NCBI GenBank assembly: GCA_031459915.1
Contig: JAVKHO010000014.1
Coordinates: 16,934 to 80,933 of the forward strand
Source: Candidatus Tepidifontimicrobium thermophilum
Lineage (GTDB): Bacteria; Sysuimicrobiota; Sysuimicrobiia; Sysuimicrobiales; Sysuimicrobiaceae
DNA: 64,000 bases
Direction of reading: 5' to 3'
The notes under the pieces were generated by a model. It saw only the letters and a program-made list of their open reading frames with translations. It was not told where the DNA came from and made no database searches. How positions within the stretch are numbered: the first letter of the stretch is position 1; each line of letters opens with the position of its first letter. The position numbers were made by a program, and so were the translations under genes. Shown piece by piece: positions 16,715-21,000 of this stretch.

Positions 16715-19000
16715 ATGGCGCTCCGAGAGGAAGCCCTCGACTACCACGCCCGCGGCAGGCCCGGCAAGTTGGCGATCCACATCACCAAGCCCTTCGCCAC
16801 GCAGCGAGACCTGTCCCTAGCGTACACGCCCGGGGTAGCGGAACCCGTGCGGGAGATCGCCCACGCCCCCCTGGAGGCGTACCGGTATACCGCCAAGGGC
16901 AACCTGGTGGGGGTGGTGTCCAACGGGACCGCGGTGCTGGGGCTGGGGAACGTGGGAGCCCTGGCCAGCAAGCCCGTCATGGAGGGCAAGGCGGTCCTGT
17001 TCAAGCGGTTCGCGGACGTGGACGTGTTCGACGTCGAGGTGGACACCACGGACCCGGAAGAGTTCGTCCGGGTGGTCCGGGCCATCGCGCCCACCTTCGG
17101 GGGGATCAACCTGGAGGACATCCGGGCGCCGGATTGTTTCTGGATCGAGCAGCGGCTGCGGGAGGAGCTGGACATCCCCGTGTTCCACGACGACCAGCAC
17201 GGGACTGCCATCATCGCGGGCGCGGCCCTGCTGAACGCCCTGGAACTGGTGGACAAGCGCATCGACGCCGTCCGGCTCGTCATCAGTGGCGCGGGGGCTT
17301 CCGCCATCGCCTGCGCGGAGTTCTTCCTGCTGCTGGGCATGCGGCGGGACCAGATCGTGTTGGTGGACACCAAGGGGGTCGTCTACCGGGGTCGCACGGA
17401 CGGGATGAATCCCTACAAGGAGCGGTTCGCTGCAGACACCCCGGCCCGGACCCTCGCGGAGGCCCTGGCGGGTGCGGACGTGTTCGTGGGCCTGTCGGCG
17501 CCCAACATCGTGACCGGCGAGATGCTGAAGACGATGGCCGACCACCCCATCGTCTTCGCCCTGGCCAACCCGGACCCGGAGATCCCGTACGAGGAAGCCC
17601 GTGCTGCGCGGCCGGACGCCATCGTAGCCACCGGACGGTCCGACTACCCGAACCAGGTGAACAACGTCCTGGGCTTCCCCTTCATCTTCCGGGGCGCCCT
17701 GGACGTGCGCGCCCGCGCCATCAACGAGGAGATGAAGCTGGCCGCGTGCCGGGCCCTGGCCGCCCTGGCCAAGCAGGAGGTGCCCGACTCCGTCCTGCGT
17801 GCCTACGGCCTGGAGAAGCTGGCCTTCGGGCCGGACTACCTGATCCCCAAGCCCCTGGACCCGCGGGTCGCACTGTGGGTCGCGCCCGCGGTAGCGGAGG
17901 CCGCCATGCGTAGCGGGGTCGCCCGGCGGCACGTGGACCTGGAGGTCTACCGGGAGGAGCTGGCTCGGCGCCTGGTGCGCGGTCGCGAGGTGATGGGGGT
18001 GGTGTTCCAGAAGGCCCGGCGGGACCCCAAGCGCATCGTCTTCAGCGAGGGCGAAGAGCCCAAAATCCTGCGCGCCGCGGCCATCGTGGCGCAGGAGGGG
18101 ATCGCCACGCCCCTGCTCCTCGGCCGGGAGGCGGTGGTGCGGGCGCGCATGGAGGAGCTGCGGATCAACGGCGCCATCCAGGTGGTGGACCCCGACCGGT
18201 TCGACGGGCTCGAGGCGTACGCGCAGGAGCTGTACCGGCTGCGCCAGCGAAAAGGGGTCACCCTCCGCGAGGCCCGCACCCTGATCCGCCAGCCCAACTA
18301 CTTCGGGGCCATGATGGTGCGCAGGGGGGATGCGGACGGGTTCGTGGCGGGGCTCACCTACCACTACCCGGACGTGATCCGGCCCGCTCTCCAGGTCATC
18401 GGCCCGGGGCCGGGGGTCAGCCGCGTGGCGGGCCTGTACCTCATGATCCTGGACGGCCGGGCGTACCTCTTCACGGACCCCACGGTGAACATCGACCCCA
18501 CCGAGGAGGAACTGGCGGAGATCGCCATCATGGCTGCGGACAAGGCCCGGGAGTTCGACCTGGAGCCCCGGGTGGCCATGATCTCCTTCTCCAACTTCGG
18601 GTCCACCCGCCACCCCCGGTCCGACAAGGTGGCCCGGGCCACGGAACTGGTGAAGGAGGCCCGCCCGGACCTCATGGTGGACGGCGAGATGATGGCGGAC
18701 GTGGCCCTTTCCCCGGAGCTTCGGGCGGAGGACTACCCGTTCTCCGCCCTGGTGGGCGAGGCCAACGTGCTGGTGTTCCCGAGCCTGGAGGCCGCCAACG
18801 TGGCCTACAAGCTGGTCCAGCGCCTAGGAGGAGCTGTCGCGGTGGGGCCCATCCTCATGGGGATGGCGAAGCCGGTGCACGTGCTCAGCCGCGGTGCGGA
18901 AGTGAGCGACGTGGTGAACATCACGGCCATTGCCGTGGTGGACGCCCAGACCCCGAGGAAACCGGTGGGCGTCCGCTCGCTGTCCGGGGTCCGGCTGTGA
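16715..19000 (+). CDS. maeB: NADP-dependent malic enzyme with PTA-like domain
   Basis: [56 protein letters not shown]-terminal PTA-like domain (FSNFGS, VDGEM). Confidence 0.96.
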
Positions 19001-19003
19001 GGG

Positions 19004-19579
19004 CTACTCCTTCTTGCGCTTGGCCCGCTCCACGTAGGTGCTGGTGGCCACCTCCACCCGCACCCACTCCCCGGGCGCGATGAAGGGGGGCACGAGGATC
19101 ACCAGGCCGTTCTCCAGCCGCGCCTCCTTCCACACGTTCTCGTTCCCCACGGAGCGCGTGGGCGGCGCGGTCTCCACCACCTGCAGCTCCACCACGTCCG
19201 GAAAGACCACGCCCACCGCTTGACCCTCCGAGAACTCTACGGGAACCGTGCTCCCCTCCGTGAGGTAGGCGGCGGCCGGGCCCAGCCGCTCGTTGTCAAT
19301 GGACACCTGCTCGAAGGTCTCGCTGTCCATGAAGTGGGTGGCCTCCGCGTCGCGGTACAGCACCTGCATGGGGCGCCGCTCCAGCTGGACGTCCTCCACG
19401 GTCTCGTCGGCGCGGAAGCGCACCTCGCGGACCGCGCCGGTGTGCAGGTTGCGGAGCTTCGCGTGGGTCACCCCACCCATCTGCCCGCCTCCTGCGTGGT
19501 AGGACGCCGTCACCACCTTGTACAGCTCCCCTCCGACCCGGATGGCCATCCCGCTGCGGAGTTCGGACGCCACCACCAT
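19004..19579 (-). CDS. Elongation factor P family protein, atypical loop
   Basis: ASELRSGMAI, KLRNLHTG, FMDSETFEQ, LENGLVILVPPFI..GE..YVER; KPGKG is replaced by AGGGQMG. Confidence 0.9.
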   Translation of the reverse strand: MVVASELRSGMAIRVGGELYKVVTASYHAGGGQMGGVTHAKLRNLHTGAVREVRFRADETVEDVQLERRPMQVLYRDAEATHFMDSETFEQVSIDNERLGPAAAYLTEGSTVPVEFSEGQAVGVVFPDVVELQVVETAPPTRSVGNENVWKEARLENGLVILVPPFIAPGEWVRVEVATSTYVERAKRKKE

Positions 19580-19632
19580 GTCCGCTCCTCCCGCCCGCGC
19601 CTCCACGCTCTAGTATAGGCAGGCGGGCCCCT

Positions 19633-21000
19633 TCACGGGGACTCAGACCCGCGGAGCTGGATCCAGAGGCTCGCGACTTCCTGCGTCCTGTCCAGCTCCA
19701 CGTCTGCCAGCCGCACCACGGAGCCCCGGGCCACCGGGGATCGTACCCGTACCCGGTGCGCCAGCCCCACGGGCAGGGCGTCGAGCCCGTCTGCCTCCTG
19801 CGCGGGCAGGAGCTTACCGAACACCGTGTAGCCTCCCTCCCCGTCCAGGACGTCCCCTGGCCTCAGGTCCCTCTTGGCTACCGCTACCACCTCCGCCAGC
19901 CGCTCCGCGGGCTGGCCCGTGGCTTCCCCCCGCAGCACCGCCCGGGCTACGCTCACGCCGACCTCCAGGCCCACCCAGTGCGTCGGGCGGTACAGGGCCG
20001 CGTACGTTCCTGAGGAGTCGGTCCGGATCCCGTACTCGGAGAAGCAACGTGCCACGTAGTCGGAACCCGCCCGCACCACGACGAACACACCCCACCGCAG
20101 GTCGCCGGGGACCGGGCTGCCGTCCGGGTTGAGGCTGGACACCACCTCCAACGTGCCCGCCCGCTCCAGGATCCCGCCCGCGTCCCGCGGCTTGCAGACC
20201 TCCGCCAGGCCGTCCACCCCGCAGGCCGGAAACTGCAGGCCCCCGCTCTGCGGTACGAGTCCCGTAGCGTTGGCCACCGCCGCCATCTCGATGGCGGACT
20301 TGGTGCCGTCCAGAAAGGAGGTGAACATGCGGGCGTTGTAGTCGCCGGCCGCCACCATCTCCGGAGTGAACCCGTAGTGCTCCCACACCTGGTCAGGGGT
20401 GACGAAGGAGTAGCCGGGCAGGTAGCGCGTACCCTTTCCCGCGCAGACGACCTCGAACCCGCAGATCCGGGCCCAGTCCACCAGCTCGCAGATCAGCGCC
20501 GGCTGATCCCCGTACGCCAGGGTGTAGACCACTCCCTGCTCCCGAGCCCGCTGCGCCAGCAGCGGCCCCACCAGCACGTCCGCCTCCACGGTGGCCATGA
20601 CCACGTGCCGGCCCGCGCGGATGCCCTCCAGGGCGTGCCGGACGGCGGCCGCGGGAGAGCCCGTGGCTTCCACCAGCACGTCCAGGGCGGGCGCCGAGAT
20701 CAGCGCCTGAGCGTCGTCGGTCACCCACGTCGTCCCCTGCCGCAGCGCCGTGGCCGGGTCCGGTGCGGAGAACCGTTCCTCTGGCCAGCCTGCGCGCCTC
20801 AGGCTCTCTCTGGCCCTGTCCGGCCACAGGTCGCAGACGCCCAGCACCTGCAGCCCCGGGGTGTGCAGGGCCTGGGCGAGGAACATGGTCCCGAACTTTC
20901 CGCTGCCCACGAGTCCGACCCGTACCGGCCTGCCCTGCTCCGCCCGGCGGGCTAACTCGGCGGCGAGCCCGCCAAACCCTGGGTCCCGTTCTCTCACCAT
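19633..21000 (-). CDS. NAD(P)-dependent oxidoreductase, homoserine-dehydrogenase-like, with C-terminal SAF domain
   Basis: GSGKFG, EATG, EADVLVGP, GDQP, AGKG, SFLDGTKSAIEM, YRPTHWVGLE, AKRDL..LDGEGG. Confidence 0.88.
   Translation of the reverse strand: MVRERDPGFGGLAAELARRAEQGRPVRVGLVGSGKFGTMFLAQALHTPGLQVLGVCDLWPDRARESLRRAGWPEERFSAPDPATALRQGTTWVTDDAQALISAPALDVLVEATGSPAAAVRHALEGIRAGRHVVMATVEADVLVGPLLAQRAREQGVVYTLAYGDQPALICELVDWARICGFEVVCAGKGTRYLPGYSFVTPDQVWEHYGFTPEMVAAGDYNARMFTSFLDGTKSAIEMAAVANATGLVPQSGGLQFPACGVDGLAEVCKPRDAGGILERAGTLEVVSSLNPDGSPVPGDLRWGVFVVVRAGSDYVARCFSEYGIRTDSSGTYAALYRPTHWVGLEVGVSVARAVLRGEATGQPAERLAEVVAVAKRDLRPGDVLDGEGGYTVFGKLLPAQEADGLDALPVGLAHRVRVRSPVARGSVVRLADVELDRTQEVASLWIQLRGSESP

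Follow-up and report, generated by a model that had tools for sequence, protein, structure and literature searches.

An apparently unnamed subfamily of EF-P paralogues with a longer, proline-poor tip loop and without the GDT motif

A second EF-P gene of Candidatus Tepidifontimicrobium thermophilum, found in the 64,000-nucleotide stretch of DNA analysed here (the window), encodes a member of a distinct, apparently unnamed EF-P paralogue subfamily outside both canonical EF-P and EfpL. The hallmark of this clade is a longer, proline-poor domain I loop together with loss of the GDT motif of domain III, and not the glutamine at the loop tip. By analogy with characterized EF-Ps, we propose with moderate confidence that the protein would act as an accessory EF-P-type elongation factor without tip modification and with weaker and shifted stall specificity.

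The paralogue gene and its locus

The gene (19004..19579, minus strand) is an open 191-aa frame with three EF-P Pfam domains above cut-off: EFP_N (PF08207, residues 4–61), EFP (PF01132, residues 69–122) and Elong-fact-P_C (PF09285, residues 130–185). The KOW domain and two OB domains that mark the EF-P superfamily are all present according to Pfam, the structural model and the fold match. An AlphaFold model built from a 41-sequence alignment (pLDDT 92.2) had T. thermophilus EF-P as its best structural match (1UEB, E 3.4e-19); strands 18–28 and 37–44 flank exactly the tip loop, and model confidence was lower at the two rebuilt loops (blocks at 80 and 73). The protein passed the cut-off of the broad EF-P model PRK00529 in NCBIfam (184.7 versus 161 bits), narrowly missed that of the efp equivalog TIGR00038 (177.9 versus 185.8 bits) and stayed far below those of the EfpL models NF003392 (107.8 versus 216) and TIGR02178 (106.9 versus 264). 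The initial annotation, which had called this gene an EF-P paralogue, proposed a search for a canonical efp; one is present on contig C24 of the same genome, with the loop KLGRGSA, an RGDT motif and 41% identity to the paralogue.

A GGAGG ribosome-binding site (19587..19591, minus strand) is read from the sequence 7 bases 5′ of the ATG, and TATACT, a likely −10 promoter element (19612..19617, minus strand), lies inside the 53-base gap to the upstream gene, which encodes a DRL/homoserine-dehydrogenase-like oxidoreductase with a SAF domain (19633..21000, minus strand). On the other side, a convergent malic enzyme–phosphotransacetylase fusion (16718..19000, plus strand) ends 3 bases from the paralogue stop codon, and no clear minus-strand terminator lies between the two genes. 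Adjacency of these flanking genes to the paralogue is not conserved outside the genus. The initial annotation also mentioned a PPP-type leader 14 kb away; the window holds no better candidates than short, unconvincing frames close to 3.4, 33.6 and 35.6 kb, with no link to the gene.

At 95 loci from genomes and 45 clade loci from metagenomes, the flanks of the paralogue vary freely and no conserved shared neighbour was found. The largest sets of shared neighbours are lineage-bound: 19 Terriglobia-type loci have a gene of the adenosine-specific-kinase family, 12 loci a radical SAM gene and 8 DUF3467. In one Terriglobia-type subclade (L068, L085, L094 and 16 further loci), the adenosine-specific-kinase gene (19) or the radical SAM gene (12) adjoins the paralogue. 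Five loci (L044, L052, L060, L203 and L208) have a nicotinamidase-like gene of the isochorismatase family directly upstream, and L044 additionally has a nicotinate phosphoribosyltransferase gene nearby.

The TATACT hexamer recurs 26–87 bases upstream of the paralogue in the loci of 13 of 14 relatives, with TATATT in the fourteenth, and is rare in this 2.6-Mb genome (48 sites). Judged by this conservation it is most likely a housekeeping −10 element, for which it is our candidate; no good −35 element was found beside it and a consensus promoter scan made no call there. RNA traces are few: one read pair falls within the gene in run X21 and none in X22, and a 1,330-base contig of RNA-library X13, which may hold DNA, covers it. 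The paralogue is probably expressed.

Two rebuilt loops and the contacts that are kept

Residues 26–39 (SYHAGGGQMGGVTH) contain an 8-residue Gly-rich β3–β4 loop without proline, A29–G36 (19472..19495, minus strand; alignment and AlphaFold model). This loop, AGGGQMGG, compares with 7 residues in E. coli EF-P and 9 in EfpL (alignment; E. coli proteins from the annotated genome). It had correctly been described as proline-free and one residue longer than the canonical loop; its likening to that of EfpL fails because EfpL has two additional residues and the query one. Gln33 (CAG, 19481..19483, minus strand) falls on the position of E. coli Lys34 in the alignment to E. coli EF-P, as first read. The query therefore has, by its 8 residues and Gln33, no canonical 7-residue loop with a Lys/Arg tip, and it likewise lacks both the PGKGP loop and the 9-residue loop with an Arg tip and Pro at −3 that characterizes EfpL. 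None of the known Lys/Arg modifications can be made on a Gln tip. Tips other than Lys and Arg are already in print for EF-P (Asn, Gln, Met, Ser and Gly; PMC11611912 and PMC6544042, in the parts available). In domain III, loop I (R142–W150; 19130..19156, minus strand) stands in place of GDT, the motif facing the E-site codon: E. coli K143-G144-D145-T146 aligns with R142-S143-V144-G145, which bears out the reported loss of KGDT and leaves RSVG instead of a canonical GDT-type loop.

Other contacts are retained. Tyr182 and Arg185 (19025..19036, minus strand) are the equivalents of E. coli Tyr183 and Arg186, which in EF-P touch the P-site tRNA at A42 and the 16S rRNA at G1338 (PMC11611912, in the part available); this pair, expected of the EF-P superfamily, is kept across the clade, with the Tyr183 equivalent in 95% and the Arg186 equivalent in 97% of rows (n = 95). 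Domain II is acidic (mean net charge −6.7 in the clade, −8 in the query and −8.0 in canonical rows), and in EF-P this acidic domain docks on uL1, which is essential for binding according to the accessible text of PMC11514478. The column of Asp69 holds Arg/Lys in 95% of clade rows; it is mixed in canonical rows, and an argument from it is weak because of that variability. With two known ribosome contacts altered and four surface residues newly conserved in the clade (His28, His39, Trp150 and Glu115), the paralogue might have left the ribosome to bind another RNA or protein. We regard this as extremely unlikely, given that the Tyr/Arg pair, the acidic domain II, the size and the three-domain shape are all retained and that no partner gene travels with the paralogue.

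The glutamine codon and selection on the gene

A misread AAG, raised at the outset as a possible sequencing error, is rejected: the Gln33 codon is unchanged in the independent contigs of two other runs (X12 and X13), which differ inside the gene at only two sites, both third codon positions, and Gln occupies the tip in all 17 same-phylum relatives whose loop was read. Relaxed selection, the other early concern, is rejected within the genus. Pairwise dN/dS against three congeners was 0.008, 0.038 and 0.10 for the paralogue, and the canonical gene gave 0.062, 0.066 and 0.052; at larger distances the ratio is inflated for both genes because dS is compressed by a GC3 near 0.9. Between families, the paralogue is better conserved than the canonical copy (67–71% versus 58–68% identity). 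The paralogue is maintained under purifying selection and is as strongly conserved as the canonical copy.

A separate clade in which the tip residue varies

For phylogeny, closest homologues, 50%-level representatives and genome loci, restricted to 175–200 aa, were pooled and thinned at 80% identity (402 to 262 sequences); random subsampling of two dense groups gave 217 rows, in which canonical row L150 comes from the unpublished genome G089. Both diagnostic loops were removed before tree building, leaving 160 columns, and trees were unrooted and made without a mixture model, with the canonical EF-Ps nearest the query as outgroup. A clade of 95 rows lay on one side of a branch with SH support of 96 (FastTree, 217 rows), and an IQ-TREE analysis (LG+G4, 64 rows, diagnostic loops left out) supported the clade at 99/97. 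The phylogeny against EF-P and EfpL that had been proposed as a check thus placed it outside both. Two 8-residue look-alikes, P0169 and P0215, and also P0204, fell outside the clade.

Constrained topologies were informative about origin. Recent duplication of the host efp was rejected (p-AU 4e-45), and so was membership in EfpL (query with five EfpL rows, p-AU 1.2e-6; EfpL model scores far under cut-off). A sister relationship of the whole clade to EfpL was borderline rejected (p-AU 0.044), and EfpL was itself not recovered as one clade.

Within the clade, the loop has 8 residues in 85 of 95 rows and 7 in the remaining 10, and Pro occurs among its first four positions in 10 of 95. GDT is found in none of the 95 clade rows; among 107 canonical rows, the strict motif occurs in 33 and Thr146 is retained in 89%. 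The tip is Lys in 73 rows, Gln in 19 and Arg in 3, and the Gly residues flanking it are conserved. When the query is taken together with the 120 best of 299 homologues, Lys stands at the tip in 88, Gln in 32 and Thr in 1; Gly32 is invariant (121/121), and a conserved NVWK closes the domain III loop. A subfamily defined by Gln was rejected, since Gln members do not form one clade (p-AU 3e-52) and most members have Lys; on the tree, the tip switches between Lys and Gln 7 times among 39 clade rows. Of the initial idea of a distinct unmodified EF-P subfamily, the separate clade and the impossibility of the known Lys/Arg modifications on Gln hold, and Gln as its hallmark does not (Lys in 88 of the 121 closest sequences).

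Distribution and coexistence with canonical EF-P

In the phylum of the query and its near relatives, which we take to be Sysuimicrobiota, the paralogue was present in 15 of 60 genomes that are at least 90% complete, and all 15 carriers also have a canonical copy. A first survey of the phylum had found the paralogue in 15 of 41 genomes, with no second EF-P seen in three carriers that are 72–83% complete. Outside the phylum, every carrier in two sets (5/5 and 40/40) had at least two EF-P homologues, and 7 of the 40 had three; the partner loop was read for the five (all of TPGN type). The paralogue is, like EfpL, always accompanied by another EF-P (15/15, 5/5 and 40/40). In an even sample of 90 Acidobacteriota taken besides the centre, at least 2 carry the paralogue, a count based on the 50 loci fetched, with lower-scoring matches outside it. 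The genome counts include the unpublished G023, G186, G067 and G089 as non-carriers, and the conclusions are independent of them. That the paralogue is dispensable is shown by its patchy presence (15/60 in the phylum and at least 2/90 in Acidobacteriota).

Among the best 80 of 254 matches, named relatives at 69–96% identity come from HR32, Ca. Sysuimicrobium, Ca. Calidihabitans and Armatimonadota, and more distant ones from Acidobacteriota (Terriglobia, Bryobacterales, Vicinamibacteria and Thermoanaerobaculia), Eisenbacteria and Xenobia. Hydrogenedentota and Betaproteobacteria contribute single named relatives. No close relative was found among the best 10 of 16 matches in a phage collection, and ESM Atlas matches were to generic EF-P clusters only. 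One Gln-tip clade member lies on a conjugative megaplasmid (NZ_CP024940.1; L195:2423-3031) of Paraburkholderia hospita, a cultured soil bacterium, directly upstream of a Drg-like GTPase gene; the record shows this member with an out-of-frame 5′ end. Independently of the paralogue, the f2 family of the phylum has an EF-P at the canonical position with the loop KRAQRQA or RHAQRQA, in which Gln falls on Lys34 and GDT is kept (L016, L017, L019, L020, L127, L128 and L131); in some genomes this is the sole copy.

The distribution bears on whether the paralogue simply duplicates the polyproline function of EF-P as a back-up copy that spread horizontally and is kept for dosage or particular conditions, its loop changes being tolerated variation. 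EF-P tips do vary, a strict GDT is a minority feature even of canonical rows, and patchy spread with changing neighbours fits transfer, which has been documented for efp (PMC11388002, in the part available). A true equivalent should, however, sometimes replace the canonical gene, which was never the case in 60 near-complete or surveyed carriers, and the clade-specific residues are fixed across phyla. We therefore consider a simple back-up unlikely.

Searches for a modifier and for partner genes

No EpmA exceeded the TIGR00462 cut-off in a profile search of five carriers (0/5), and the query, with its Gln, is not of the EpmA-modified type that combines a Lys tip with epmA. EarP (PF10093) gave no match in five carriers (0/5), its control being likewise silent, and the query tip is not Arg. 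A dedicated neighbouring modifier was not found at any of the 95 genome and 45 metagenome loci.

One further enzyme family was considered. If Lys-tip members were modified by an enzyme yet to be recognized, such as a bacterial deoxyhypusine-synthase (DS) homologue, Gln forms could be derived, modification-free offshoots in hosts lacking it. A DS-family gene is present in all 33 Lys-tip carriers, in none of 17 genomes of the query phylum (8 of which are Gln-tip carriers; no homologue was found in the query genome itself) and not in the Gln-tip carrier G109. Yet it also occurs in 4 of 4 Gln-tip Terriglobia carriers and in 21 of 25 Acidobacteriota that lack the paralogue, never adjoins the paralogue, and at 4 of 6 fetched loci sits beside arginase-family, arginine-decarboxylase or deiminase genes. 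Such a setting is that of homospermidine synthesis by SpeY (PMC13625781, in the part available). The link to DS is weakened by its frequency in non-carriers and this SpeY-like setting, and modification of the Lys-tip members by such an enzyme is, in our judgement, very unlikely.

A Drg-like GTPase gene adjoins the paralogue in two unrelated loci (L083 and L195) and in none of 80 metagenome loci. All 60 genomes examined from the phylum have it, carriers or not, and elsewhere it occurs in 23 of 40 carriers versus 12 of 40 non-carriers, kin in these latter samples not being independent. An obligate tie is rejected, adjacency being rare and the GTPase being present regardless of the paralogue. The GTPase (G000:C1:169033-170025; L083:2611-3627; L195:3090-4205) has yeast Rbg1/Rbg2 as its best solved relatives and is distinct from ObgE; Obg is treated as the bacterial counterpart of Drg in the accessible part of one preprint. 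It is patchy in Acidobacteriota, and the family may deserve its own study.

A possible role at the E site

As an accessory elongation factor, the paralogue would, judging from structure–function work on EF-P, enter an empty E site, its acidic domain II docking on uL1 and the pair Tyr182/Arg185 contacting both the P-site tRNA and 16S rRNA. Its longer, flexible Gly-rich hairpin would be laid against the tRNA's CCA end, and there the backbone of the loop, together with a polar side chain (Lys or Gln), could stand in for the modified Lys/Arg of EF-P; the seven exchanges between Lys and Gln fit a tip that needs no modification, and neither an EpmA above the cut-off nor a deoxyhypusine-synthase homologue was found in the query genome. 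With GDT lost, the E-site codon would not be read as EF-P reads it, and the fixed basic residue at the Asp69 position may give a backbone rather than a base-specific grip on the tRNA D-loop. The outcome might be weaker rescue with shifted or broader stall motifs, an addition to canonical EF-P of the kind that EfpL provides in E. coli. EfpL offers a precedent, working unmodified with an extended loop (PMC11611912, in the part available), and EF-P itself needs uL1 for binding but depends little on the E-site codon (PMC11514478, likewise in part).

Several observations speak against this reading. Gln, a short side chain carried by a floppy loop, may fail to extend to the CCA end, and the known unmodified EF-Ps use Pro-stiffened loops or an Arg tip (PMC12856214, PMC11611912 and 10.1101/2023.09.18.558224, as far as available), both of which are missing in the query. 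The patchy distribution and the few RNA traces also count against it. The accessible parts of PMC11514478 report that mutation of GDT to Ala inhibits binding (introduction) and that E. coli EF-P without its modification is about 100-fold less proficient. These two losses are why the back-up explanation was retained and why a further one has to be weighed, in which the protein binds the E site as a modulator and not as a rescuer, competing with EF-P and prolonging pauses or parking ribosomes under some condition. Both specificity loops have been rebuilt and a charged tip is not required, yet the residues used for docking persist; pauses can also be induced by EF-P and EfpL (PMC11611912 and PMC12856214, available parts), and foreign EF-Ps can harm E. 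coli (PMC12931083, likewise in part). Against this, all 95 rows still have one of Lys, Gln and Arg at the tip, flanked by conserved Gly, as expected of a precise contact, and a housekeeping-type −10 element suits a constitutive factor better than an inhibitor. Such a modulator seems improbable to us, and an accessory elongation factor remains the reading that we put forward.

A broader proposition, possible but on balance doubtful, is that the clade represents a third general type of bacterial EF-P-family protein, which needs no modification, does not sense the E-site codon and is independent of tRNA-Pro, resembling the broad-acting eIF5A or a tunable E-site pause factor, and that it is ancient and spread among uncultured phyla. 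If this were true, neither a charged tip nor GDT would be needed at the peptidyl-transferase centre.

Comparison with known EF-P types

EfpL is the only characterized EF-P paralogue, and the clade is a second paralogue type. Two 2026 reviews, in the portions available, name EfpL as EF-P paralogue and no other (PMC12856214 and PMC13602936), and EF-Ps of unknown type occur in roughly half of bacterial genomes (PMC11388002 and PMC13602936, also in part). No published description of the clade was found in the literature searched, the scope of which excluded subscription journals and bioRxiv supplements, and the loop motif of the clade was not found in the supplements of PMC6544042; figure data of PMC11388002 may bear on novelty. 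A motif search of the 5,448-protein table of PMC11611912, as available, retrieved one unrecognized member, WP_260794004.1 of Occallatibacter riparius, which has the loop AGAAKMSG, is filed there as a 7-residue EF-P and is the third homologue of an organism that also has a TPGNLRA EF-P and an EfpL. Its assignment to the clade is suggested by the loop, which matches those of Terriglobia members. The two surfaces credited with the activity and specificity of EF-P are both rebuilt in the clade, and natural Lys/Gln tip pairs occur in it, so that the contributions of the tip side chain and of the GDT loop can be tested directly; O. riparius is a cultured organism with all three homologues, and the thermophile-derived members are presumably unmodified candidates for in vitro translation.

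Among described groups, "Family 5: 18 Acidobacteria glycine-type EF-Ps" of Brewer and Wagner (PMC11388002) resembles the clade in being of unknown type and paired with another EF-P. It is more likely of EfpL type, because the second copy of cultured Acidobacteria in the accessible part of the Sieber table is of the 9-residue EfpL type; identity with our clade is, from a comparison of the descriptions, the less likely of the two. The PGKGP EF-Ps share presumed activity without modification and differ in that two prolines stiffen a 7-residue loop that keeps its Lys, whereas the clade loop is longer and Gly-rich (PMC12856214 and 10.1101/2023.09.18.558224, in part). Canonical EF-Ps (T. thermophilus 1UEB/4V6A, E. 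coli 6ENU and the host copy) have the same fold and domain order at 33–41% identity; the query differs in scoring under the equivalog cut-off, in its 8-residue loop with a Gln tip, in lacking GDT and in not being a recent duplicate. EfpL (YeiP, E. coli, PDB 8S8U; TM 0.76) is similar as a three-domain paralogue that occurs beside another EF-P, has an extended domain I loop and keeps Tyr183/Arg186 (PMC11611912, in the part available), and it coexists with the clade in some genomes, such as that of O. riparius. Unlike EfpL, the clade has one and not two additional loop residues, a Lys/Gln instead of an Arg tip and no Pro at −3, and it has lost the GDT-type loop.
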